From Acidimicrobiales bacterium (GTDB lineage: Bacteria; Actinomycetota; Acidimicrobiia; Acidimicrobiales; JAKAVM01), in assembly GCA_027452005.1 (NCBI GenBank), contig DAIDHF010000002.1, forward strand, positions 661-64,660: a DNA stretch of 64,000 nt. The letters run 5' to 3'. Below the pieces are notes generated by a model that was not told where the DNA came from, searched no databases, and was given only the letters and a program-made list of their open reading frames with translations. Positions 49,081 to 62,972 of the stretch are shown in pieces (positions within the stretch are counted from its first letter, which is position 1; each line of letters opens with the position of its first letter). A program made the translations under genes and the position numbers.

Positions 49081-49826
49081 CTAAAACGTCGTATCGCAAT
49101 CCACAGGGAAACAATCGACCAGATTATTACGACCGAAAACTCTCGAAAGGTTATTCCAAATCCCGGTCCATACCCAGCAAAGGTCGCCAAGAGGGACTGG
49201 GCAAAATGGTTAACCGGGAATACGTTGCCTATTTTATGCAGTATCGACGTGTTGGAGATTGGAAAGAACACCCCCGAGATAAATATGATCGGTAGGTAGA
49301 TCCCGTTAACAATTGCCGGGGCCGAGTCGGCATTAGGGACGAAGATGGTAACGGCCAGCCCCATGGTGCAAAACGCAACTACCCCGATCAAGATGACAAC
49401 AACAAATGCAGCCGGGTGAGTGGGCATAGATACCCCAAACTCAGCAATCCCAATTGTGACCACTATTACAGTAGTGAGTATGGAGATTAACACCGAGTTC
49501 CCTATTACTCCCCCCAGGAAGATATACGGGGGAAGTGGCGTACCTTTGATCCGTTTGAGAATTCCTGACTCGCGCCTTATTGTCATGGCAATTGCCAGGG
49601 CTGTAAAACAGGAGTTCATCAGGCCATAGGCCAACATGGCTGGGACAAGATACTGATCGTAACTAACCCCGGGATTTCCGGTTACGTGGGTGGAGTGATT
49701 TGTTGACCCGAAGATGAGCAGGAACATGATTGGAAATCCGACCGTAAAGATTCCGGCCGCCGGATTTCTCCAAAAGGCCTTCTGTTCATAACGTACCTGG
49801 CTTGCCAGTAACCGAGCGTTCCTCAT
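49062..49826 (-). CDS. ABC-2-type transporter permease
   Basis: 254-aa ORF with 6 TM helices. It overlaps the upstream ATPase gene stop by 4 nt. Confidence 0.75.
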   Translation of the reverse strand: MRNARLLASQVRYEQKAFWRNPAAGIFTVGFPIMFLLIFGSTNHSTHVTGNPGVSYDQYLVPAMLAYGLMNSCFTALAIAMTIRRESGILKRIKGTPLPPYIFLGGVIGNSVLISILTTVIVVTIGIAEFGVSMPTHPAAFVVVILIGVVAFCTMGLAVTIFVPNADSAPAIVNGIYLPIIFISGVFFPISNTSILHKIGNVFPVNHFAQSLLATFAGYGPGFGITFREFSVVIIWSIVSLWIAIRRFRWEPRK

Positions 49827-50761
49827 AGGGCCTCAGAATCTCGGGTTATTCGCAGGTACATGTCTTCTAGACTCGGCTGTGACACGTTCAGGTTCCCCGG
49901 ACTAATACCAGACCCTAACCACCACTTTGTTAGCTCACTTAGGTCCTCCACCGGAGAGGTCGACTCAATTGTTACCAACGACATGTTCTCCCGAGATTCT
50001 ACCGTGTGGGTAACCGGACACCGCTCAAGATCGGCGGTCGAGGAAATCGAAAACGTAATTTGGGTAGCAGCACTGTCTCGCCCTCCCAGGGTTTCAGGGG
50101 TTCCTTGAGCTACAATCTGTCCCTTGGCGATAATCACCACTTTGTCGGCCAGGTTCTGGGCCTCATCCATGTAGTGTGTGGTGAGAAGCACGGTCCTACC
50201 CTGGCTACACAGGGTCCTGATGATATCCCAACTCTCATGTCTGGCTGACGGGTCAAAGCCAGTCGTGGGTTCGTCTAAAAAGATTACCTCCGGGTTTCCA
50301 ACCAGGGCCAGGGCCAGGTCAAGTCTTCTCTGAAGTCCCCCAGAGAGTCGCTTTACCTTTTCGTTACGCTTGTCGACTAGGCCGGTCAACTCCAGAATCT
50401 CGTCGACGTCAAGGGGTCTTGAATAAAACGTGACCCTCTGTCTGAGCACTTCGACCACTCTTAGAAAGGGGTCGATAGAACACTCTTGTAAGACAATCCC
50501 TACGCGCTCTTTATAACGTGATCCACCTCTCTCGGGATCTTCCCCGAGTATCTCTACGGTCCCTGCTGACTTTTTCCGGTAACCCTCTAGAATCTCAACC
50601 GTGGTCGTCTTCCCTGCGCCGTTTGGCCCCAGTAGGGCTAGCACCTCTCCGGTCTTGACTGTAAAGTCAATACCCTTGAGAGCTTCGAGGTCTCCGTAGG
50701 ACTTACGAAGTCCCGAAACCACAATTGCATTATCCACCAGTAACCGCTCCCAAACTCGCAA
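49823..50761 (-). CDS. ABC transporter ATP-binding protein (DrrA-like)
   Basis: It has Walker A GPNGAGKTTT, signature LSGGLQRRL and Walker B VIFLDEPTTG. The start is uncertain: TTG at 50761 or GTG at 50737. Confidence 0.85.
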   Translation of the reverse strand: MRVWERLLVDNAIVVSGLRKSYGDLEALKGIDFTVKTGEVLALLGPNGAGKTTTVEILEGYRKKSAGTVEILGEDPERGGSRYKERVGIVLQECSIDPFLRVVEVLRQRVTFYSRPLDVDEILELTGLVDKRNEKVKRLSGGLQRRLDLALALVGNPEVIFLDEPTTGFDPSARHESWDIIRTLCSQGRTVLLTTHYMDEAQNLADKVVIIAKGQIVAQGTPETLGGRDSAATQITFSISSTADLERCPVTHTVESRENMSLVTIESTSPVEDLSELTKWWLGSGISPGNLNVSQPSLEDMYLRITRDSEAL

Positions 50762-53587: not shown

Positions 53588-54154
53588 GTGTTTGTACTAG
53601 GTAAACTCAATGAGAAACCTTTAGAGAAAGTATTGGCTAAGGCCCGATCAAACCCCCTGAGCTACCATGAGATCGGCCAATCCACCGAGGATCATCTCCC
53701 TAATGGTTACTACCACATTGAGGTTCGAACACAGGTCGGAGATGGCTCTGACTTTGATCGGGCAAAGGCCGGGCTGAAATCTTGGGCCGTCCAACATGGT
53801 GCCGGGGCCAAAGTGTTTCCTGATATTGAAGTTTCACAAGACGCCACGATTTTAGTGATCTTGGGCTTGTTCCCAGTGTATTTTATCGCACCATGCCGGG
53901 TCGTGAGGATTGTAGATACACCGGACCGGTATGGGTTTGCATACGGCACCATAGTAGGGCATCTCGAATCGGGCGAGGAGCTTTTCTTGGTCGAACGAAG
54001 TGGCGATAGGACTTATTTTCTGGTTAGGGCATTCTCCAGGCCGGGAAATGTTTTAGTAAGGCTGACTGGTCCCATCTCTCGGGCCGTACAAAAGTACTTT
54101 ACACGCCGGTACGTGAGGGCAATGATAAACCTTGTTTCCCGAGACGGGCTATAA
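53588..54154 (+). CDS. DUF1990-family protein
   Basis: 188-aa ORF. LSYHEIGQS...LPNGYYHIE...GDGSDFDRAKAGLKSWAV and FAYGTIVGHLESGEELF match my memory of the DUF1990 pattern. Not verified. Confidence 0.5.
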   Translation: MFVLGKLNEKPLEKVLAKARSNPLSYHEIGQSTEDHLPNGYYHIEVRTQVGDGSDFDRAKAGLKSWAVQHGAGAKVFPDIEVSQDATILVILGLFPVYFIAPCRVVRIVDTPDRYGFAYGTIVGHLESGEELFLVERSGDRTYFLVRAFSRPGNVLVRLTGPISRAVQKYFTRRYVRAMINLVSRDGL

Positions 54155-55540
54155 CTTACACTGCTCGGTCGAACCCGGGAGCTTGTGTCTGAACTTGACT
54201 AGAAAACTATAGCCAAGTTTACTTATCCAGCTTGTCGGAGGATACATAAACAAGACTCCGACTAACCTTCGAAAGCCTCCCCCGGCTCTAAGGGCCCTAC
54301 CAATGGCCAAGTGTCCACGAAAGCGATTGCCGGCGCGGTCTATCCACCACGCCGCGCTCGTGACATCGGCAGTTGTTAGTCCGAGGCCCGTCAGTTCTCG
54401 TGGGCTAAGTGATTGGTAGGAGACCACTTGTTGCCTAGACTGGAACTTGGTATTCGCCCACTTAGCACTAGCAGTACAAAATCCGCAGTCCCCGTCAAAT
54501 ATTAGGAGTTCACCTCCTAGCGTTAGATTGTTTGATCTGGGCTCTTTATCTGATAGGTCCGCGGATAACTGTTTGGGCTGACCGATCTTACTCTCAGCAC
54601 TGAACCATCGCAGATCGTCAAGCCTATAGCGAACCTGAGAAGGCAACCTACTTACGATATTGTGCTCGGAAAACTCTATTGCCGGAATTAGGTCGTCGTC
54701 TAGGAAGTCTGGTGCACACGTAGCCTCAATAACTTCTTCTCGAAGTATTCTGACTTGTGCTTGGGAGATCAGTGGCACGGTCATAGCCAGTTCGCTAACC
54801 TTTGCCAAGAGGTAGTGAAAGATAATCGGGACTCTTATAAATGGCCTTCTCACTGAGGTTGCCCTGGCAACCAATCGTGCCGCCTGGTCAAAGCCGAGCT
54901 CACTTGGACCGACCAGGCCGAGGGTTCTCATGGAGTTTCTCCCGCCGACAATTGAGGCAATGATTACGGCAACAAGATCCTCTACCGCAAGTGGCCTCAC
55001 TTGCCGGTCCCCAATACCAAGATAGACAGGGAATGTCCTCAACGCTCGTGAGAGATGATCTAACATATGGTCACCCGTCCCAAACATCATTCCTGGTTTC
55101 AAGATTGTCCAGTCCAGCTTAGAGCCACGAATAATCTCCTCTGCTGCCCACTTGGACTCGTGGTATCTCGATCCACAGTTAGGTCTTGCCCTCAAGAAAC
55201 TTATGAAGCATAACCTATCGACTTTGCACTTTTCCATGGCAAGTACTACGTTTCTAGTCCCACGAATATGAACCGAGTCATAGGTCTGATCTCCTATCTC
55301 CCGGTTTATCCCGGCACAGTGGACTACCGCGTTACATCCATCAAATGCGAGCGCTAGTTGGTCGATCTCGAAATCGGCCACTTGGCAAATCGTGATCCCA
55401 GGAAGATTTGAGACCCGACGGGACAAGTTCCTCTGATCAACCCCTCGGGAAATCCCAACTACCTCGTGGCCCTGAGCAAGCAACTCAAGGGCCAGGTTTC
55501 CACCTACAAATCCGCTATAGCCAGTAATGGCGACTTTCAA
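54149..55540 (-). CDS. Fusion protein: NAD(P)-binding SDR/NmrA-like domain plus C-terminal DCC-family thiol-disulfide oxidoreductase (DUF393)
   Basis: The Rossmann motif is KVAITGYSGFVGGNLALELLAQGHEVVG. The C-terminal about 120 aa carry the DCC motif LIFDGDCGFCTASAKW. A TTG start at 55540 lies 2 nt after the arsR-like stop. The ORF-track start at 55606 would overlap that gene by 65 nt. Confidence 0.7.
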   Translation of the reverse strand: MKVAITGYSGFVGGNLALELLAQGHEVVGISRGVDQRNLSRRVSNLPGITICQVADFEIDQLALAFDGCNAVVHCAGINREIGDQTYDSVHIRGTRNVVLAMEKCKVDRLCFISFLRARPNCGSRYHESKWAAEEIIRGSKLDWTILKPGMMFGTGDHMLDHLSRALRTFPVYLGIGDRQVRPLAVEDLVAVIIASIVGGRNSMRTLGLVGPSELGFDQAARLVARATSVRRPFIRVPIIFHYLLAKVSELAMTVPLISQAQVRILREEVIEATCAPDFLDDDLIPAIEFSEHNIVSRLPSQVRYRLDDLRWFSAESKIGQPKQLSADLSDKEPRSNNLTLGGELLIFDGDCGFCTASAKWANTKFQSRQQVVSYQSLSPRELTGLGLTTADVTSAAWWIDRAGNRFRGHLAIGRALRAGGGFRRLVGVLFMYPPTSWISKLGYSFLVKFRHKLPGSTEQCKL

Positions 55541-55541
55541 C

Positions 55542-55880
55542 TCACACCTTCTTTTTGGGTTTCTTAGTTGAACTTCCTCTAGTCGGGTCTGATTTCCTAA
55601 GTACAATCTGTGCAGGACAGATCGCCGAAAGGTAACTACCTACCGAGATCGCAAGTCGCTCCTCGACAATTGAGTAGAAGATCTTATTTGCATCTCTACG
55701 CTCCACGACTAAACCGGCATTCCGAAGAATTGAAAGGTGCCTCGAAATGGATGGTCCAGAAATCGAGAACTTCTCTACAATCTGGCCAGCAGTTAGCTCT
55801 CTGGAACTAAGTAGACGAAGTATCTCACGCCGGTGCGGGTCGGCCAAGGCCTTGAACACGCCAGACGAATCACTTTTCAT
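55542..55880 (-). CDS. ArsR/SmtB-family transcriptional regulator
   Basis: 112-aa ORF with FKALADPHRREILRLLSSRELTAGQIVEKFSISGPSISRHLSILRNAGLV, the canonical wHTH. Its ATG overlaps the MFS stop (ATGA). Confidence 0.85.
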   Translation of the reverse strand: MKSDSSGVFKALADPHRREILRLLSSRELTAGQIVEKFSISGPSISRHLSILRNAGLVVERRDANKIFYSIVEERLAISVGSYLSAICPAQIVLRKSDPTRGSSTKKPKKKV

Positions 55881-57154
55881 ATTTTTCTATTTAGCCATAT
55901 ATCTAAATACTTGTCAACTTTTCCGATTAGTCCCAGGGCGAGAATCGAAAACAGGACTGCCGGTATGATCACGAAAGACAAAGCCCCTCGATAACCAATA
56001 CTTTGAGCGACAAACCCGACTCCGGCCGGAAGAATTATGTCTGTAATCTTTACGATCCCGGTCAAGTGGGCGTTAGCACTGGACAGATGCTCTGTGGGGG
56101 TGTCCTGTGCAATCAGTGACAGGGACAGGGGGTAACTGATCCCGTGTCCAACCCCACAGACGAGCATTCCAACAATGAGGTAGTCCGACCCGTGAAGGAC
56201 GCACAGGACGAGTCCCAAAATGGAACTCCCACAACTGAGCTTCATCAATCGGGCCTTGTTGGAGATTGGGGAGTTCACCGCGATTGACAGCCTGATTAGA
56301 AAAGACACCAAATAAAACGCGGAGATGATTAGAGTAAATGACTTGATTCCGATTTTATCTTGAGTTACTCCAAGTAGAGCTCCGAAGGACACAATCGAGG
56401 TAAACACGACATCAAAGGCTAACTGTGAGTAAAGCACGGTCCTAAAGGAGTGGTCTCTAAGTTGTTGGAAGGTACCTCGATATGAAAGAACCCGGACATC
56501 TTGAGTGTCGTCGGCCGGTCCATCGAGCTGGAATGCTGCAACCTGGCTATCTGGCTCGCCGTCCAAGGACCGCCTCCAACTAGGTGCGGTTATAGCCACG
56601 GCCAACAACCCGACTATTGGCCACGGGGCAAACACCCAAAAAGCAACACGAAGTGAGCTACCAGCCAGGGCCAAGACCGCGGATTCGACCAGGGGGCCAA
56701 TCAAGAGCGACAGGCTTAGAGAGACCGTGTAACGGGTTACCGATCGCTCAACTCCCCCCGGGCCGGTCTTGCCTGCCAGGGTCATGAGGGCGGGAAAGGA
56801 TAACCCTCCCCCTGCTCCAATTGCCATGGCAGCCAAAAGGTAGGTTACATCGGTGCCAGCCAGGGCAAACAGGCCATATCCGACCCCAAAGAATGCCAGC
56901 CCCAGCGCGAGAGCCCAGATTAGAGCCTCTCCCGAGAGTCGAGAGGAAAGATTCAGAGAGACCAATGAGTAGATAACACCCGAACCGGCTACCGTTAGCC
57001 CAATTGCCCCAGGCCGCATCGAGAGCAACTTGGCCCCGAGGAGGGGAAATGTTACCAGGGCGACATTCTGTGAAGAACGTGTGAGAAAAGTTACGGACAG
57101 AAGCGATACTGTGGACTTCCAGGTTCCTGACCCGGTATTTGATTTTGCGATCAA
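55877..57154 (-). CDS. MFS transporter
   Basis: 425-aa ORF with about 12 TM helices in a 6+6 arrangement and a central hydrophilic loop (SWRRSLDGEPDSQVAAFQLDGPADD). Confidence 0.7.
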   Translation of the reverse strand: MIAKSNTGSGTWKSTVSLLSVTFLTRSSQNVALVTFPLLGAKLLSMRPGAIGLTVAGSGVIYSLVSLNLSSRLSGEALIWALALGLAFFGVGYGLFALAGTDVTYLLAAMAIGAGGGLSFPALMTLAGKTGPGGVERSVTRYTVSLSLSLLIGPLVESAVLALAGSSLRVAFWVFAPWPIVGLLAVAITAPSWRRSLDGEPDSQVAAFQLDGPADDTQDVRVLSYRGTFQQLRDHSFRTVLYSQLAFDVVFTSIVSFGALLGVTQDKIGIKSFTLIISAFYLVSFLIRLSIAVNSPISNKARLMKLSCGSSILGLVLCVLHGSDYLIVGMLVCGVGHGISYPLSLSLIAQDTPTEHLSSANAHLTGIVKITDIILPAGVGFVAQSIGYRGALSFVIIPAVLFSILALGLIGKVDKYLDIWLNRKI

Positions 57155-57310: not shown

Positions 57311-57958
57311 ATGAGGGCACTAAATAAATCGGTATTGATTCTATGTATGCTTTGTCCTGTATTAATCGTGTCTTCTTGCTCGACATCTACTTCAAGTACA
57401 AGTGAGCCAAGCCGAACGATTTATCTTGCTGCTGGCCAAATCCCGGCTTCTGAGCTTCCCCACATAGGGCGGAGTGGATCAGGGGGGGCTGGTGGTACCA
57501 CAACAATTCCACTTGCCCAACAAAATCCGCTAACTGAACTGTTTCAAGATATGAGTGAGTTCCAGGCCTGTCTTCAAACCTTGGGAGTGAAATTCATCGG
57601 GGTTCCCGACCAGAACAATCCCAACTCTCCGACAAACAGCCCGACTTATCTAAAAGCCCTTCAGACGTGTGCGGCGCAGAGTAATATCGTGCAAGCCCTA
57701 AAAGACGTGAGTAACACCGACAACAACATGACGCCCTCTCAGATACGAAAAGAGAATAAAATGTACATCGCCTGGAGGAAGTGCATGATAGGAAAGGGCT
57801 GGCAAATTCCCACACCGACTCCAAATTCAAAGGGCGAGCTGTTTGCCCTTGGATCAGAGACGAGCGGTGTTACAAATATGACACCTCCTCCGGGACAGTC
57901 CATCTTGTCAAGCGGCGACATGCAGGCATGTGCCCAGCAAACAAGTACCGGTAACTAA
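57311..57958 (+). CDS. Cys-containing lipoprotein of unknown function, first gene of the MacB-type cluster
   Basis: The ATG start at 57311 gives MRALNKSVLILCMLCPVLIVSSCSTSTSS, a signal peptide plus lipobox; the ORF-track start at 57212 is an extension. Four further Cys are regularly spaced (FQACLQ, LQTCAAQ, WRKCMIGKGW, MQACAQQ). Confidence 0.6.
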   Translation: MRALNKSVLILCMLCPVLIVSSCSTSTSSTSEPSRTIYLAAGQIPASELPHIGRSGSGGAGGTTTIPLAQQNPLTELFQDMSEFQACLQTLGVKFIGVPDQNNPNSPTNSPTYLKALQTCAAQSNIVQALKDVSNTDNNMTPSQIRKENKMYIAWRKCMIGKGWQIPTPTPNSKGELFALGSETSGVTNMTPPPGQSILSSGDMQACAQQTSTGN

Positions 57959-57990
57959 GGCTACTTAGGTAATATCAAAAGGAACTACTC

Positions 57991-60990
57991 TTGCTTTCAA
58001 AGATTCTAAAGAATAAAAAGGCCCTCATAGCGGGCGTGGTGGTTGTGGCCGTGATTGGTGCCATCGTTTACTCGATTTCCGGTTCCAAGTCGAACTCGAT
58101 TAACGGACAGACCGTCATCTATTCACAGGTGGCTCGACGCACTCTACAGGGAACCACGGTTCTCTCAGGCACCCTGGGGCACAAGACAATTACGACCGTT
58201 TCGGCCATGAATTCCGCTTTTGTGAGTTCTACCGATGCCACGGCCAACTCTGTCCAAAACCAGGGGGACACCCTATTTTCTCTGAATGGCCGCAAGGCAA
58301 TTGCCGAAAACGGGACTCTTCCGTTCTTTCGGTCTTTAGGGCCTGGTGACGTGGGAAACGATGTACTTGAGCTCAAACAGATCTTGGCTTCATCGGGAGA
58401 CAACCCCGGTGCCATGAACAACATCTTCACTCAGCAAACCCAAAGTGCCCTAGCACAGTGGCAAGCCCAAAATGGATATCCCAGCGGAGTGCCAGCCTCA
58501 AAAGAGGCTGTCACAGTGGCCCTGCAACAAGGGACCGGCTATAACCTAGGGGCCCAGTCTAGTGCCGGGCTTGTAATCGGGCCCCCTGCCCCAACGGCCC
58601 AACTTTCCTCGTACTCTGTTTCTCACTTTATCCCGGCCCGTTCTCGCCATCTAATTGGGAAGAGATACCGCTTTAGTGGCAAGAAACTGGGTCATCACCA
58701 CAATCGATCCAAAGCTACCCGCCGACACAAAAAGCGAGACCGACACCTAAACAAGTCAGGACTCAAAAGGAACGGTTCTCGCCAGGCAGTTTTGGCATCG
58801 TTTTCCACCGAGAGTCATCTTTCGGGTCCAGTCCCGCACACCACGACTCTGGGCCTCACCATTACAGGGACCACGTCAACGACTCCAGGTACCTCGGTCA
58901 CCTTTACTGTAAACGCGAACGAGGCCGCTCCCCAAAACACGTACGTCTACCTCACGGTTGGGGGCAGCGCTCTCGCCGGGGTGGACTACGTCCCATTCAA
59001 CACGACCCTGGAACTCGACTCAGGTGCCATCTCTACCAGCTTTACCGTCACCACGCTACCAAATCAGACTATCGAGCCGAATAAGTTCTTGGACATCGTC
59101 TTGTCTCAGTCACCTAGTGGGGACTACTACGTTTCGGAGCCTTCGGCCGCTGCACTAACTATCGATGAGCCGACCGGGACTCTTGGGCTACCCACACTTA
59201 CCCTTACGTCATCGACCACATATCTAGATAAAGGGGCTCCGTTCGAGGTCGTGATCGGCCTAGATCAAGCCTACGGACAGTCGGTAACCGTTCAACTCGC
59301 CTATAGTGGGACTGCGGTTGCGGGAACCGACTACGTGGAACCCTCAGGAAACATTGTCGTTCCGGCCGGGTACACGTCATTGACAGTGCCAATCGCAACC
59401 GTGTCGAATAATCTTGTTGAACCAGATAAGACGTTGACCGTAACTCTCGCGACCAACTCGGCGTACGACATTGGAAATCCTGACAGTGCAACCGTGACAA
59501 TTCACGACCCCAACGTTCCTCAGCTCAACATTATTGGCGGGTCACAGATTACCGCTGGGACCTCAACCACTCTAACCATTCAAGCAAACCAGACGGCCAG
59601 TCAGGATACCCAGGTGCTCCTGTCATTCTCTGGGACCGCTCAGGCCGGTATTGATTACGATGTCCCTGACCCCGTAGTGACTATTCCAGCAGGCCAGCAG
59701 AGCGTGTCGTTCTCACTTACCACCCTCGTCAACCCGATTATAGAGCCCCAGCGCTATATAGTTGTCTCAATCGCACAGTCGCCAGCGGGAGCTTATACAG
59801 TCCAGACCCCGGGATCTACGGTGGTAACTTTGGGTACTCCTCAGTCAGCTCCCCCTTTTGTCACGATTAGTTCCGGGATCAACTACCTCCACAAAGGAAC
59901 CCCTTTCCAGGTCTCAGTCGGGCTTACTCAGGCCACTGATACCACCTTGACCATCAACTTGTCCTTTAGTGGCACGGCCAAGGCGGGAGTAGACTACACG
60001 CCACCGGCCGGACTAATTCAGATTCCAGCAGGCCAAACAGTTGCCCAGGTTACAATCCCAACCCTGGTGGACAACCTGGTTGAAGCCGACACGACACTCA
60101 CAGTGTCCATTGCTCCGAGTACGTCCTACCAGATTGGAAACCCGAACTCGGTTACTACAACGATCACCTCAAACGTGGTCCCGACAATCACGATAAGTTC
60201 CAGTACGTCGTCGTTGTCTGAGGGAGCAGACGCGACCTTTACAATTACAGCTAACCAGGCCCCGGTCAAAGATACCTCGATCAATTTTTCCGTGGCTGGC
60301 ACAGTTCAGGCGGGAGTTGACTACGTCCCTTTGGCTGGCACGGTTATCCTTCCAGCGGGCCAGACCCAAGTCACCGTGTCATTTCAATCCATTGAAAAGG
60401 ACATCGTTTTTGAGCCTACCGACATGATAGTAGGATCGTGGCCGATAAGAATTGGGCAGGTCTACGTGAAACAAGGCCAGACTATCTCGGCGGGCAGCCC
60501 AATTATGGACCTCACCGAGAGCCAGAACACAATAACCCTTCAAGCCTCACCGTCTGACTTTACCAAGTTGGCCCTGGGACAGAGCTGTACGTTTACAATT
60601 GCCGGGAGCCAGACTGAATATAACGGGACCATATCAGAGCTTGATTCAAACCCAACTATCCAGTCTGGATCTGGGTCCTCAAGCTCACAGCAGATATTTG
60701 AAGGTCGGATTGCGGTTACGAATCTTCCAAAGAGTGACCGGAATGCCGATGGGGCCTCGGTGTCTATTACCGTGGTAACCCAGGAGGCAGACAACGTGCT
60801 GGCAGTCCCGATCGCCGCTATCAAACAGAACGGGACCGGGGTTGACGAGGTTAGGGTTATCGACATGTCGGCCAAGCAAAAGGTCAAGACGGTCCCGGTA
60901 ACAACGGGTCTCACGGAAGGTTCCTATGTTCAAATAACCGGGGGACTAAAACTTGGGGAAACCGTTATAGTATCGGTAAGTCAAGGATAA
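57991..60990 (+). CDS. Giant membrane-fusion (HlyD-type) adaptor: TM, PG-binding-like segment, basic linker, 5 Calx-beta-like modules, HlyD beta-barrel
   Basis: 999-aa ORF.
- TM helix: ALIAGVVVVAVIGAIVYSI
- PG_binding-like segment: VLELKQILASSGDNPGAMNNIFTQQTQSALAQWQAQNGYPSG
- five modules of about 105 aa with G(T/S)A.AG.DY..P.G....PAG ... EP/EA
- C-terminal region: VYVKQGQTISAGSPIMDL...LAVPIAAIKQNG...YVQITGGLKLGETVIV. Confidence 0.8.
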   Translation: MLSKILKNKKALIAGVVVVAVIGAIVYSISGSKSNSINGQTVIYSQVARRTLQGTTVLSGTLGHKTITTVSAMNSAFVSSTDATANSVQNQGDTLFSLNGRKAIAENGTLPFFRSLGPGDVGNDVLELKQILASSGDNPGAMNNIFTQQTQSALAQWQAQNGYPSGVPASKEAVTVALQQGTGYNLGAQSSAGLVIGPPAPTAQLSSYSVSHFIPARSRHLIGKRYRFSGKKLGHHHNRSKATRRHKKRDRHLNKSGLKRNGSRQAVLASFSTESHLSGPVPHTTTLGLTITGTTSTTPGTSVTFTVNANEAAPQNTYVYLTVGGSALAGVDYVPFNTTLELDSGAISTSFTVTTLPNQTIEPNKFLDIVLSQSPSGDYYVSEPSAAALTIDEPTGTLGLPTLTLTSSTTYLDKGAPFEVVIGLDQAYGQSVTVQLAYSGTAVAGTDYVEPSGNIVVPAGYTSLTVPIATVSNNLVEPDKTLTVTLATNSAYDIGNPDSATVTIHDPNVPQLNIIGGSQITAGTSTTLTIQANQTASQDTQVLLSFSGTAQAGIDYDVPDPVVTIPAGQQSVSFSLTTLVNPIIEPQRYIVVSIAQSPAGAYTVQTPGSTVVTLGTPQSAPPFVTISSGINYLHKGTPFQVSVGLTQATDTTLTINLSFSGTAKAGVDYTPPAGLIQIPAGQTVAQVTIPTLVDNLVEADTTLTVSIAPSTSYQIGNPNSVTTTITSNVVPTITISSSTSSLSEGADATFTITANQAPVKDTSINFSVAGTVQAGVDYVPLAGTVILPAGQTQVTVSFQSIEKDIVFEPTDMIVGSWPIRIGQVYVKQGQTISAGSPIMDLTESQNTITLQASPSDFTKLALGQSCTFTIAGSQTEYNGTISELDSNPTIQSGSGSSSSQQIFEGRIAVTNLPKSDRNADGASVSITVVTQEADNVLAVPIAAIKQNGTGVDEVRVIDMSAKQKVKTVPVTTGLTEGSYVQITGGLKLGETVIVSVSQG
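58849..60420 (+). repeat. Array of five Calx-beta-like coding repeats (A-B-A-B-A subtypes)
   Basis: Core motifs by module:
- R1: GGSALAGVDYVPF
- R2: SGTAVAGTDYVEP
- R3: SGTAQAGIDYDVP
- R4: SGTAKAGVDYTPP
- R5: AGTVQAGVDYVPL
The repeats are divergent at the DNA level, so this is an old duplication and not a slippage-prone array. Confidence 0.75.
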
Positions 60991-61727
60991 TGACCTTACC
61001 AGAAACCTCTGTGCTCGATGAACCACGAGATCCCTTTGGAGGTGAGGCACTTCTTGAGTTGGAGAGCGTTTCAAGGATCTATGGGGAGGAGGTTGAAGTA
61101 TACGCCCTCCGAGATGTATCACTAAAGATATCTGCTGGCGATTTTATTTCAATTATTGGTCCGTCAGGCTCTGGCAAGTCAACCATGCTCGGACTGCTTG
61201 GAATCTTAGACCTGCCATCAAAAGGGACGATTAGGGTAAGTGGAATTGACGTGTCAACGCTAAACGATATTGACCGATCACGACTTAGAGGCGACTCCAT
61301 TGGGTTCGTGTTTCAACAGTTCCACCTAGTTCCTCACCTAACCGCAGCACAAAACGTAGAAACGGCCTTGCTATTTAGGAGTATAAGTCCCAAAGAGCGC
61401 CAAGTTAGGTCCCATGAGGCACTAGATCAACTTGGGCTCTACAAGAGGCGAGACCACCGCCCGGTTCAGCTTTCAGGGGGAGAACAACAACGAGTGGCCA
61501 TAGCCAGAGCCATTGTCACCAATCCCAAGATGATCTTGGCCGATGAGCCAACCGGGGCTCTCGACTCTGCAAATGCCGCGCACGTGTTGGAGATTTTTGT
61601 AGGGCTCCAGTCGCCAGAGCGGGCCGTGGTCTTGGTAACTCACGACATGGGGGTGGCAAACCAAGCATTCCGAAAGGTTTCCATGAAAGATGGCCAGATC
61701 ATTAAGGACTCCTCGGATCCGGTGTGA
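60990..61727 (+). CDS. MacB/LolD-type ABC ATP-binding protein
   Basis: It has Walker [10 protein letters not shown], the Q-loop FVFQQFHL, signature [14 protein letters not shown] and Walker [12 protein letters not shown]. Its ATG overlaps the adaptor stop (TAATG). Confidence 0.88.
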
Positions 61728-61787
61728 TGGACGTGATGCGAGAACATGTTCTGGGAAATGGACTTCACGTGGTTCCCGTAAGGCTAC

Positions 61788-62972
61788 ATGAACAACTTTC
61801 GTGACCTGCTGCGGGTTGCCTGGTCGGGCCTTACCGCGAGGAAGGTCAGGACCATGCTTATCATGCTCGGACCCATAATCGGGGTTGCTGCCATGGTTGG
61901 TGCCGTGGGCCTTACCGAAAGCGCCAAGGGAGGACTGCAGCAACAGCTGGCCAAGCTGGGCACCAACCTGATCATCGCCCAGGCAGGTGGAACTTTTGGC
62001 TCTCAAAACCCGACCTTCCCCGAGAACGTGGTGTCTAGGGTCAAGGCAATCTCAACAGTGGAATCAGTTGCGGCAACCACGAACATCTCTGGCGTGATCA
62101 CCCTCCCAGAGGCCGCTGGAAGTACCTACTACCAGGCCTTCCCAGTTCCAGTCAGGGCTGCCGGGATCAACCTTCCCAAGGTCTTGAAGGTTCCCATGAT
62201 CTCAGGGCGTTGGCTAAATGAGGCAGACCTCAACTTGCACGCCCAGAGTGTCGTACTTGGACAAGGGGTCGCCCAGCAGTACGGGTACGTGCCAGGGGAA
62301 GACCGAACGATCCAGCTAAACGGGATAAACTTTGGAGTGGTCGGCGAGCTATCGAACGTGGCCTTAGATCCGACCTTGAACGATGCCGTGTTTATCACCC
62401 AGTGGGCCGCCGAATACGTGCTGGGAACCAACGGCCTGCCAAATGAACTATACGTAAGATCAATCCCTGGCGACACGGCCGCTACCAACAAGGCTATCCC
62501 TTTAGCGGTAAGCCTGGGCGGTCCGGACCAGGTAACCACTCAGGTACCATCAGATGTCCTCCAAGCCGCAGCCCAGGCAAACAAGACTCTCCAACAGGTA
62601 GCCCTGTTTGCTGGACTTCTTGCCCTGTCAGTTGGAGGCCTGGGCATTGCCAACGTGATGTCCATATCGGTAATCCAGCGCTCCTCTGAGATTGGAATTC
62701 GTCGAGCCCTGGGTCACGGGCGCTCTAAGATAGCCGCCCAGTTCATGCTGGAGTCTCTGTTCGTTGGACTACTTGGCGCCATGGTCGGGGCCGTGTTTGG
62801 AGTTGGCGTGGTCTATCTCGCCTCCCACTTTGAACACTGGGTCGTGGTAATTGCTTACGGAAAGTTCCCGATTTGGATGGGTCTGGCAATTTCGGTTTCA
62901 ATCATGGCCGGACTCTATCCATCCATCAAGGCCGCACGGCTTGAGCCCTTGGAAACTCTGAGACTAGGTTAA
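61788..62972 (+). CDS. MacB-type ABC permease (MacB periplasmic core domain plus FtsX 4-TM)
   Basis: 394-aa ORF with an N-terminal TM (RTMLIMLGPIIGVAAMVG) and an extracytoplasmic domain of about 220 aa. The C-terminal FtsX helices carry SEIGIRRALGHGRSKI. Confidence 0.85.
   Translation: MNNFRDLLRVAWSGLTARKVRTMLIMLGPIIGVAAMVGAVGLTESAKGGLQQQLAKLGTNLIIAQAGGTFGSQNPTFPENVVSRVKAISTVESVAATTNISGVITLPEAAGSTYYQAFPVPVRAAGINLPKVLKVPMISGRWLNEADLNLHAQSVVLGQGVAQQYGYVPGEDRTIQLNGINFGVVGELSNVALDPTLNDAVFITQWAAEYVLGTNGLPNELYVRSIPGDTAATNKAIPLAVSLGGPDQVTTQVPSDVLQAAAQANKTLQQVALFAGLLALSVGGLGIANVMSISVIQRSSEIGIRRALGHGRSKIAAQFMLESLFVGLLGAMVGAVFGVGVVYLASHFEHWVVVIAYGKFPIWMGLAISVSIMAGLYPSIKAARLEPLETLRLG

Follow-up and report, generated by a model that had tools for sequence, protein, structure and literature searches.

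A MacB-type ABC transporter operon of uncultured Acidimicrobiales whose adaptor carries a probably looped array of Calx-beta modules

What membrane-fusion (adaptor) proteins do in bacteria without an outer membrane is a question that reviews have raised explicitly (PMC4446572, PMC5985334). In MacA, AcrA, Spr0693 and YknX the lipoyl domain is divided into two halves by an alpha-helical hairpin (PMC4446572), and the transporter MacB works by mechanotransmission (PMC5985334). Spr0693 of Streptococcus pneumoniae forms a hexameric nanotube with a reach of ~154 Å, roughly that of the inner-wall zone (PMC5768738), and YknX of Bacillus binds peptidoglycan, with YknW as an accessory subunit (PMC5985334). 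An adaptor without the alpha-hairpin has a precedent in BesA of Borrelia (PMC4446572). Here we describe a four-gene locus of an Acidimicrobiales bacterium, located in a stretch of 64,000 nucleotides that was analysed as a whole and is called the window below (assembly GCA_027452005.1, contig DAIDHF010000002.1, positions 661 to 64,660). It encodes a MacB-type ATP-binding cassette (ABC) transporter together with a lipoprotein and an adaptor, in which an array of Calx-beta modules appears to occupy the place of the hairpin. The Acidimicrobiales are Gram-positive Actinomycetota, monoderm and without an outer membrane.

The locus consists of four co-directional open reading frames (ORFs) on the plus strand, at positions 57311-62972 of the window:

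57311-57958, plus strand: lipoprotein, 215 amino acids (aa), from the ORF list
57991-60990, plus strand: expanded membrane-fusion/adaptor protein, 999 aa, with a TTG start; from Pfam, NCBIfam, homologues, AlphaFold2 and Foldseek
60990-61727, plus strand: MacB/LolD/DevA-type ABC ATPase, 245 aa; from Pfam, NCBIfam and motifs
61788-62972, plus strand: MacB-type (type VII ABC) permease, 394 aa; from Pfam and matches to PDB sequences

All four ORFs were confirmed, and the gene cluster and domain assignments given in a preliminary description of this DNA are correct, including the TAATG at 60988-60992 in which the stop of the adaptor overlaps the start of the ATPase. AAGGA-type ribosome-binding sites precede both the TTG start of the adaptor and the ATG of the ATPase, and a scan of the locus for promoters and terminators gave matches at chance level. 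The order lipoprotein-adaptor-ATPase-permease is kept in 73 of 83 loci, where the misses are mostly short or truncated contigs, and 79 of the 83 fetched loci have the lipoprotein gene immediately before that of the adaptor. Conservation within the operon is highest for the ATPase and permease (62-89% identity across loci); the adaptor and the lipoprotein are ~50% identical across loci.

In Pfam the ATPase matches ABC_tran (2.5e-34), and in NCBIfam it scores best against MacB (4.8e-71) and LolD (9.5e-64), followed by DarD, FtsE and DevA. Since all equivalog scores are under their cut-offs, the protein is not an ortholog of any of the named family members. Its Walker A, signature (LSGGEQQR), Walker B (ILADEPT) and H-loop (VTHD) motifs are intact in the translation. 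The permease carries MacB_PCD at residues 22-233 (5.9e-24) and FtsX at residues 274-387 (1.3e-17), in a layout with a large extracytoplasmic domain between the first two transmembrane helices and a C-terminal FtsX domain. The PDB sequences nearest to it are those of E. coli MacB (5nik, 6.6e-28, residues 2-391) and S. pneumoniae 5xu1 (5xu1_M, 5.2e-22). Judged from these matches, permease and ATPase together make up a transporter of the MacB type (type VII). A second MacB system in the window was looked for and rejected; the only other candidate, at 49823-50761 on the minus strand, is an unrelated ABC ATPase, 31% identical to the ATPase of the operon and without an adjoining MacB-type permease.

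The adaptor was modelled as a monomer with AlphaFold2 and a 119-sequence alignment, giving a mean predicted local distance difference test (pLDDT) score of 79.4 and a predicted template modelling (pTM) score of 0.38. Borders of the Calx-beta modules were taken from a motif-anchored alignment and from hidden Markov models (HMMs). The protein is made up of the following parts, from its N-terminus to its C-terminus:

58021-58080, plus strand: N-terminal transmembrane anchor, aa 11-30, ALIAGVVVVAVIGAIVYSIS, predicted from the hydrophobicity of the translation; pLDDT is low there
58114-58344, plus strand: N-terminal strands of the beta-barrel and lipoyl domains, aa 42-118, aligning with the N-halves of Biotin_lipoyl_2/HlyD_D23 in relatives; beta-strands at 42-107 in the model
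58354-58482, plus strand: PG_binding_1 domain, aa 122-164, Pfam E=1.6e-5, helices in the model, conserved family-wide
58492-58590, plus strand: N-segment, aa 168-200, a two-strand fragment; from hhalign, module HMMs and strands in the model
58591-58851, plus strand: variable, disordered linker, aa 201-287; from pLDDT, frame check and composition
58852-59175, plus strand: Calx-beta module 1, A type, aa 288-395; from alignment, HMMs and model
59194-59520, plus strand: Calx-beta module 2, B type, aa 402-510; from Pfam, alignment, HMMs and model
59521-59844, plus strand: Calx-beta module 3, A type, aa 511-618; from alignment, HMMs and model
59857-60183, plus strand: Calx-beta module 4, B type, aa 623-731; from alignment, HMMs and model
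60184-60441, plus strand: terminal, truncated Calx-beta module 5, aa 732-817, 86 aa; from Pfam, module HMMs and the conserved junction
60442-60987, plus strand: C-half of the lipoyl domain, beta-barrel and membrane-proximal domain, aa 818-999; from HlyD_3, TIGR01730, MacA NF008606 and Foldseek

The lipoyl, beta-barrel and membrane-proximal domains, contributed by the N- and C-terminal halves of the chain, make up the core found in the HlyD/MacA/AcrA family. In the C-terminal half, HlyD_3 is matched at aa 817-889 (25.2 bits against a Pfam cut-off of 22.2) and TIGR01730 RND_mfp at 820-995 (E=4.8e-17; 61.9 bits, below the cut-off of 94.9), and MacA NF008606 is matched weakly (2.2e-8, NCBIfam). 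The core also matches the adaptor TMexC in Foldseek (9j3d_D, E=1.3e-7), and a search of the adaptor against PDB sequences gave no match. The PG_binding_1 domain (PF01471) scores 25.4 bits against a cut-off of 23, which is marginal here, with relatives reaching up to 53.7 bits, and the model places two confident helices in it (123-134 and 148-160). An alpha-helical coiled-coil hairpin is not present between the lipoyl halves: these two helices are followed in the model by beta-strands, and the Pfam matches in the region are to PG_binding_1 and Calx-beta. With MacB_PCD and FtsX in the permease, all five domains proposed earlier for the operon (Calx-beta, PG_binding_1, HlyD_3, MacB_PCD and FtsX) were matched in the Pfam scan.

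An exhaustive HMMER search with adaptor residues 40-200 revealed two populations of proteins. In ordinary adaptors, which are 346-378 aa long, the match stops where the PG-binding domain ends; in the second set, long proteins with 650-1126 aa, it continues as far as residue ~200. In sampled ordinary adaptors Pfam places the N-half of Biotin_lipoyl at ~62-95 and PG_binding_1 at ~118-166, and HlyD_3 follows after 6-14 residues, from ~172. The same landmarks in the window adaptor (122-164 and 817-889) are 650 residues apart. As judged from these landmarks, an insert of ~650 aa sits between the PG-binding domain and the C-half of the lipoyl domain, which is the slot of the classical alpha-hairpin. 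The insert had been put at ~520 aa in the preliminary description, a figure that has to be enlarged: it is the sum of a fragment, an 87-aa linker and five modules. The likeness of the two ends of the protein to ordinary peptidoglycan-binding HlyD adaptors, noted in the same place, is borne out by the 346-378 aa adaptors, in which the N-terminal part up to the end of the PG-binding domain is shared and HlyD_3 comes only those few residues later.

These ordinary actinobacterial PG_binding_1-HlyD adaptors are the direct parent class, sharing with the window protein the N-terminal part and the C-terminal core, and their loci have the same downstream ATPase and MacB_PCD/FtsX permease. They differ from it in having no N-segment, no linker and no Calx-beta module. 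By this comparison the window adaptor is a descendant of ordinary ~350-aa adaptors in which PG_binding_1 was already located between the lipoyl halves, and the Calx-beta array is an addition at the same point, in the slot of the hairpin. No characterisation of the ordinary PG_binding_1-HlyD adaptors was found in the literature.

Among described systems, Spr0693-Spr0694-Spr0695 of S. pneumoniae is similar in being Gram-positive, in having separate genes for ATPase and MacB-type permease and a membrane-anchored lipoyl/beta-barrel adaptor, and in working with no outer-membrane partner. Spr0693, however, has an alpha-hairpin barrel of 56 Å, which builds a nanotube, where the window adaptor has PG_binding_1 and a looped Calx-beta array, and the window system has a dedicated lipoprotein gene, unlike Spr0693-0695. 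YknWXYZ of Bacillus shares the four components, namely adaptor, ATPase, MacB-type permease and a small accessory envelope protein. The latter is a polytopic membrane protein in the case of YknW and a lipoprotein in the window, and YknX has an alpha-hairpin and neither PG_binding_1 nor Calx-beta, unlike the window adaptor. Permease and ATPase have their best matches in MacB of the E. coli MacAB-TolC system, and the adaptor core is weakly MacA-like. E. coli MacB is a fusion of ATPase and permease and the MacA hairpin docks on TolC, whereas the window system has separate genes and no hairpin; a TolC-family outer-membrane factor was not found among the recurrent flanking families of 84 loci. In BesA the hairpin is simply missing with nothing in its place, and the partners of this adaptor are an RND pump and an outer-membrane factor.

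Calx-beta (PF03160) matches the adaptor with E=1.3e-34 (119.2 bits against a cut-off of 27) in four stretches. The modules follow the pattern A-B-A-B-A', with 39% identity between modules 1 and 3 and 50% between modules 2 and 4; at 24-50% identity overall they are not detected as repeats when the adaptor is compared with itself by BLAST. The motif G-[ST]-A-x-A-G-x-D-Y is strict in four modules and present in a loose form in all five. Module 4 alone scores 6.6e-11 against Pfam Calx-beta (42.7 bits, profile positions 24-116 of 119), and module 5 alone reaches 17.8 bits, below the cut-off of 27, at profile positions 14-84 of 119. Every module is modelled as a confident beta-sandwich of 7-9 strands (pLDDT ~85-95). 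Foldseek matches them to NCX1 (8jp0, 9.9e-11), CBD12 (3us9, 2.5e-9) and CALX (3rb7, 2e-8), so that the proposed Calx-beta fold is found by Pfam, by the model and by structural similarity to NCX1/CALX CBD12 (~1e-8 to 1e-10). Five modules with the hallmark motif had been predicted, and five were indeed found; the fifth is truncated, though, and there is an additional partial fragment at aa 168-200. The modules resemble the calcium-binding domains CBD1-CBD2 of NCX1/CALX in their beta-sandwich fold and tandem arrangement, at 14-18% identity (Foldseek). The latter are eukaryotic cytoplasmic Ca2+ sensors, whereas the modules of the window family are extracytoplasmic and come in arrays of 2-12.

The extra fragment, here called the N-segment, is a conserved stretch of 33 residues following the PG-binding domain (AVTVALQQGTGYNLGAQSSAGLVIGPP), with strands at 172-179 and 191-197 in the model (pLDDT ~92). 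In hhalign it aligns to the last two strands (F-G) of the B-type modules 2 and 4 (positions 77-103 of 109, 91% probability, E ~1e-6), and module HMMs match it at positions ~72-106 in nearly every family member checked. It was detected in 26 of 31 expanded adaptors versus none of 20 ordinary ones. At the other end of the array, the last module stops at HMM position 73-85 of 106 in 30 of the 31 expanded relatives, whatever the number of modules (the exception being P0381, a partial match), and the C-half of the lipoyl domain usually begins 1-13 aa after it. Both junctions of the insert are nearly invariant; the one between the last module and the lipoyl C-half reads FEPTDMIVGxWPxRxG, and T810, D811, M812, W817, P818 and G822 in it are invariant in 119 sequences. 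When the N-segment was grafted onto module 5, the Pfam score rose from 17.8 to 23.6 bits and coverage was extended from profile position 84 to 97. Because the two truncated pieces are complementary, co-occur and are both strongly conserved, they probably form one complete beta-sandwich, split in the chain, which closes the insert at its base.

In the linker between the N-segment and module 1, which is 87 residues long in the window protein, pLDDT is below 50 for aa 202-283. It is very basic (19 K/R and 9 H of the 87 residues, pI 12) and adjoins acidic modules with a pI of ~4.1. The basic stretch is not found in P0002, a relative with 75% identity, but only in the window protein; it may bind anionic wall polymers, or it may be the result of neutral drift.

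This linker is also the one feature that would fit an artefact, in which an assembly or frameshift error has joined an adhesin gene to an adaptor gene. Through the linker, however, only frame 0 is open and the other two frames are closed. The architecture as a single ORF, with both junctions conserved, furthermore recurs in over 200 assemblies that are independent of each other, multi-megabase contigs among them, and the position of the Calx-beta array, inside a single domain that it divides into halves, could not arise by simply fusing two genes. The closed alternative frames and the conservation in more than 200 assemblies rule out such an error, which had been named earlier as a possible source of the long ORF, and we regard its probability as negligible.

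The array is tethered at both ends. The PG-binding domain and the N-segment come directly after the N-half of the lipoyl domain, and the terminal module is joined directly and rigidly to its C-half. Median linker lengths in the family are 29 aa for proteins with 4 modules, 30 aa for those with 6 and 33 aa for those with 12 (Spearman rho 0.14). Because the linker, which is the only slack, does not lengthen with module number, the array would be a loop or hairpin with both ends at the base of the adaptor and not a free-ended stalk. A linker of 33 residues cannot return from the end of a straight rod of 12 sandwiches, so the arrays would have to fold back as loops or hairpins. For the window protein alone, the long linker would make a nearly extended array geometrically possible, with ~4 nm assumed per Ig-like module and ~0.35 nm per extended residue. 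The earlier picture of a long stalk is not supported, given that the array is inserted inside the lipoyl domain, returns to the base with both ends and has a linker that does not scale with module number.

The same topology bears on another explanation, that the array is a device for surface display or ligand binding, which would bind Ca2+, metals, polysaccharide or cells and have the ABC/adaptor core chiefly as its anchor or as an aid to its secretion. Adhesins and Ca2+-binding proteins often contain Calx-beta modules, the acidity of the modules would suit such a role, and variable module number is typical of surface proteins. An internal array tethered at both ends near the membrane-proximal core would, however, have limited reach. 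Among the module positions with full or at least 90% conservation, Gly, Pro, Ala and hydrophobic residues predominate, and each module has about one conserved Asp; judged by conservation, this pattern looks structural and unlike an acidic Ca2+ cluster. The ATPase and permease, moreover, are the parts of the operon that are best conserved. We consider a display device improbable.

Homologues of the adaptor are numerous, with at least 218 close ones, named 'Calx-beta domain-containing protein' in NCBI and 'AcrA (membrane-fusion protein)' or 'hypothetical' in JGI. The 79 loci in GTDB species representatives are all from metagenome-assembled genomes (MAGs), nearly all labelled Acidimicrobiales/Acidimicrobiaceae and many from peat, bog and soil projects. 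One plan is kept throughout the family, in which the N-segment and the linker are followed by full modules, mostly A and B in turn with a B as the last, and then by a truncated terminal module of the module 5 type. Four modules are found in 112 of 120 proteins and in 70 of the 79 loci, in a form without module 1 of the window protein. The full range is 2-12: P0008 has 12 modules, L082 has 3, and L076 and P0263 have 2 each. The window protein shares its number of 5 with a few others, and among more distant members the count rises to 6-7. The architecture is thus that of a large family in uncultured Acidimicrobiales, of which the window copy is an ordinary member, having the rarer number of 5 modules and a basic linker that is unusual.

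Within the library that was searched, there was no paper with both 'Calx-beta' and 'HlyD' or adaptors, and searches on PG-binding adaptors with MacB and on Acidimicrobiia with Calx-beta gave no description of the architecture either; the adaptor reviews of 2015 and 2026 make no mention of it. The expanded adaptor is not a one-off, being shared by the homologues and loci counted above, and the earlier remark that no described MacAB/DevABC-type system built in this way was known is consistent with our literature searches. The system is a previously undescribed variant of the known Gram-positive MacAB-like systems and not a new category.

Some members of the search results are of doubtful origin. 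L057 and L063 are short contigs that binning assigned to 'Burkholderiales' and 'Mycobacterium sp.' MAGs, with an Acidimicrobiales-type adaptor of 47-51% identity, an occurrence which is most likely binning contamination rather than horizontal transfer. P0269 (400 aa) has the N-terminal part of the adaptor through the N-segment, two Calx-type modules and a C-terminal DUF1176; P0323 (447 aa) has the same N-terminal part followed by a C-terminal cytochrome P450. Both may be chimeric assemblies or gene-call fusions.

The lipoprotein has a signal peptide with lipobox cysteine C23 (N-terminus MRALNKSVLILCMLCPVLIVSS-C; family consensus ..AAGC.., the lipobox being read from the sequence), a disordered tether and an all-alpha core, modelled by AlphaFold2 at aa 73-213 with pLDDT mostly above 85. 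Without exception, C23, C87, C120 and C158 are kept in 105 sequences, and the conservation of C207 is at least 90%. To call the protein 'Cys-rich', as was done before, is an overstatement, since the 215 aa hold one lipobox Cys and four conserved Cys, with two further Cys within the signal peptide. Its 239 homologues are all named 'hypothetical' and have no Pfam domain; the protein itself gave no Pfam, NCBIfam or PDB profile match, and its fold has nothing significant in the PDB by Foldseek (best E=1.9). A clear homologue (99.8% probability) is located upstream of a distant expanded adaptor of 1042 aa. Remote homologues (90.5% and 94.2%) lie upstream of two of three sampled ordinary PG-binding adaptors, and in the third locus the upstream protein shares only the motif C..[KR]GW.[IV]P.P. 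Judging by its co-occurrence, the lipoprotein is an obligate partner of the expanded adaptor, and it probably predates the Calx insertion, because remote homologues accompany the ordinary short adaptors as well.

One of these ordinary operons, L089 (1-6068; GCA_040877955.1, JBBDMZ010000057.1), is preceded by five small genes without a Pfam domain. The gene directly upstream of its adaptor is a remote homologue of the lipoprotein, and further upstream is a second PG-binding adaptor, apparently split into pieces of 250 aa and 72 aa.

The close association of lipoprotein and adaptor could also mean that the lipoprotein is the cargo, extracted by the MacB-type engine as in LolCDE and passed along the adaptor and its Calx-beta array into or beyond the wall. 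Co-encoding in 79 of 83 loci, co-variation with the adaptor across the family and an invariant lipobox Cys would agree with this, and LolCDE, a MacB-family member, does extract lipoproteins (PMC5985334). One gene copy per operon would, however, equally fit a stoichiometric subunit, and remote homologues are also found beside ordinary short adaptors that have no array. A LolA-like carrier is not present, and the monoderm hosts offer no outer membrane as a destination. A role as cargo seems doubtful to us, and about as poorly placed as surface display.

Besides the four genes themselves, no flanking family recurs in more than ~16 of 84 loci. This bears in two ways on the idea that the system is a regulator of wall remodelling similar to FtsEX, in which the adaptor would relay ATP-driven movement in the extracytoplasmic domain to partners that are bound to the wall. 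Positioning on the sacculus, or sensing of it, would then fall to the PG-binding and Calx-beta parts, and the lipoprotein, a penicillin-binding protein (PBP) or a hydrolase would be the effector. No substrate-related gene, bacteriocin or biosynthetic, is conserved nearby, which speaks for it, and neither is a hydrolase, a PBP or a coiled-coil activator of the EnvC/PcsB type, which speaks against it. PG_binding_1 is conserved through the whole adaptor class, and many members of the MacB family do work other than transport (PMC5985334). In Staphylococcus carnosus an HlyD-type adaptor, accompanied by an ABC pair of the MacB/FtsX type, interacts with PBP2 and on overexpression alters muropeptide composition (PMC5187514). 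FtsX models, however, fit the permease of the window much less well than do MacB and the MacAB-like permease of S. pneumoniae, and the lipoprotein has no recognisable enzymatic fold. A regulator of this kind is unlikely in our estimation, but it is the alternative that we take most seriously.

We return to a conserved four-gene envelope machine of the MacB type, which would export a substrate and have a looped Calx-beta array in its adaptor; on balance we lean slightly towards this explanation. On the model of MacAB, Spr0693-0695 and YknXYZ, the adaptor would form a ring, probably a hexamer, over the permease dimer, and ATP hydrolysis would drive mechanotransmission in the extracytoplasmic domain, by which the substrate would be expelled from the outer membrane face or the inner-wall zone. 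The PG-binding domains would anchor the ring to the sacculus, and the other modules would extend as a loop or hairpin from the adaptor tip into the wall. There the Calx-beta loops may serve as a length-adjustable spacer, guide or sleeve in the peptidoglycan, replacing the alpha-hairpin tube of other Gram-positive adaptors, and the lipoprotein would be an accessory subunit with a status like that of YknW.

Several points weigh against an exporter of this design. The TIGR01730 and MacA scores of the adaptor are far under the curated cut-offs, the lipoyl region is poorly modelled (pLDDT 46-67), and a pTM of only 0.38 means that the arrangement between the adaptor domains is not fixed by the model. 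For an adaptor without the hairpin, formation of a hexameric ring is uncertain. Mean-field direct coupling analysis of contacts between N-segment and terminal module gave noise (177 non-identical sequences, Meff 71), with a few hub columns dominating and 1 intra-module pair in the top 120. The terminal module also keeps a short F-like strand of its own (aa 812-815), which makes strand complementation by the N-segment ambiguous. Finally, all family members come from MAGs.

In a bolder version of the export machine, the adaptor ring together with its Calx-beta loops would build a conduit or sleeve, walled by protein, that crosses the Gram-positive wall as a beta-sandwich counterpart of the alpha-hairpin/TolC duct. 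The number of modules (2-12) would then be a ruler for wall thickness, and the split domain a clasp that admits an array of any length. We put this forward as a speculation that is quite unlikely to hold.

Outside the operon, and divergent from it on the minus strand, the window contains an MFS_1 transporter (55877-57154) and an ArsR-family helix-turn-helix regulator (55542-55880). A gene of the same transporter type is also located upstream in the contig of the closest relative (L001) and is not found in more distant loci. Next to these, at 54149-55606 on the minus strand, is a 485-aa ORF in which an NAD-dependent epimerase/NAD(P)H-binding domain is fused to a C-terminal DCC1-like thiol-disulfide oxidoreductase domain.

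The practical value of the system is limited for now, because every member is from uncultured Acidimicrobiales. The probable split Calx-beta domain is a tidy example of a tandem-repeat array inserted into another domain. The family as a whole is a natural experiment, in which the TolC-docking part of an adaptor has been replaced by a wall-binding domain and a beta-sandwich array, and in which the length of the array varies sixfold among relatives against the background of an unchanging ABC engine and lipoprotein partner. If array length tracks the architecture of the wall, or if the array lines the exit path, this would show how MacB-type pumps of Gram-positive bacteria are coupled to the sacculus.

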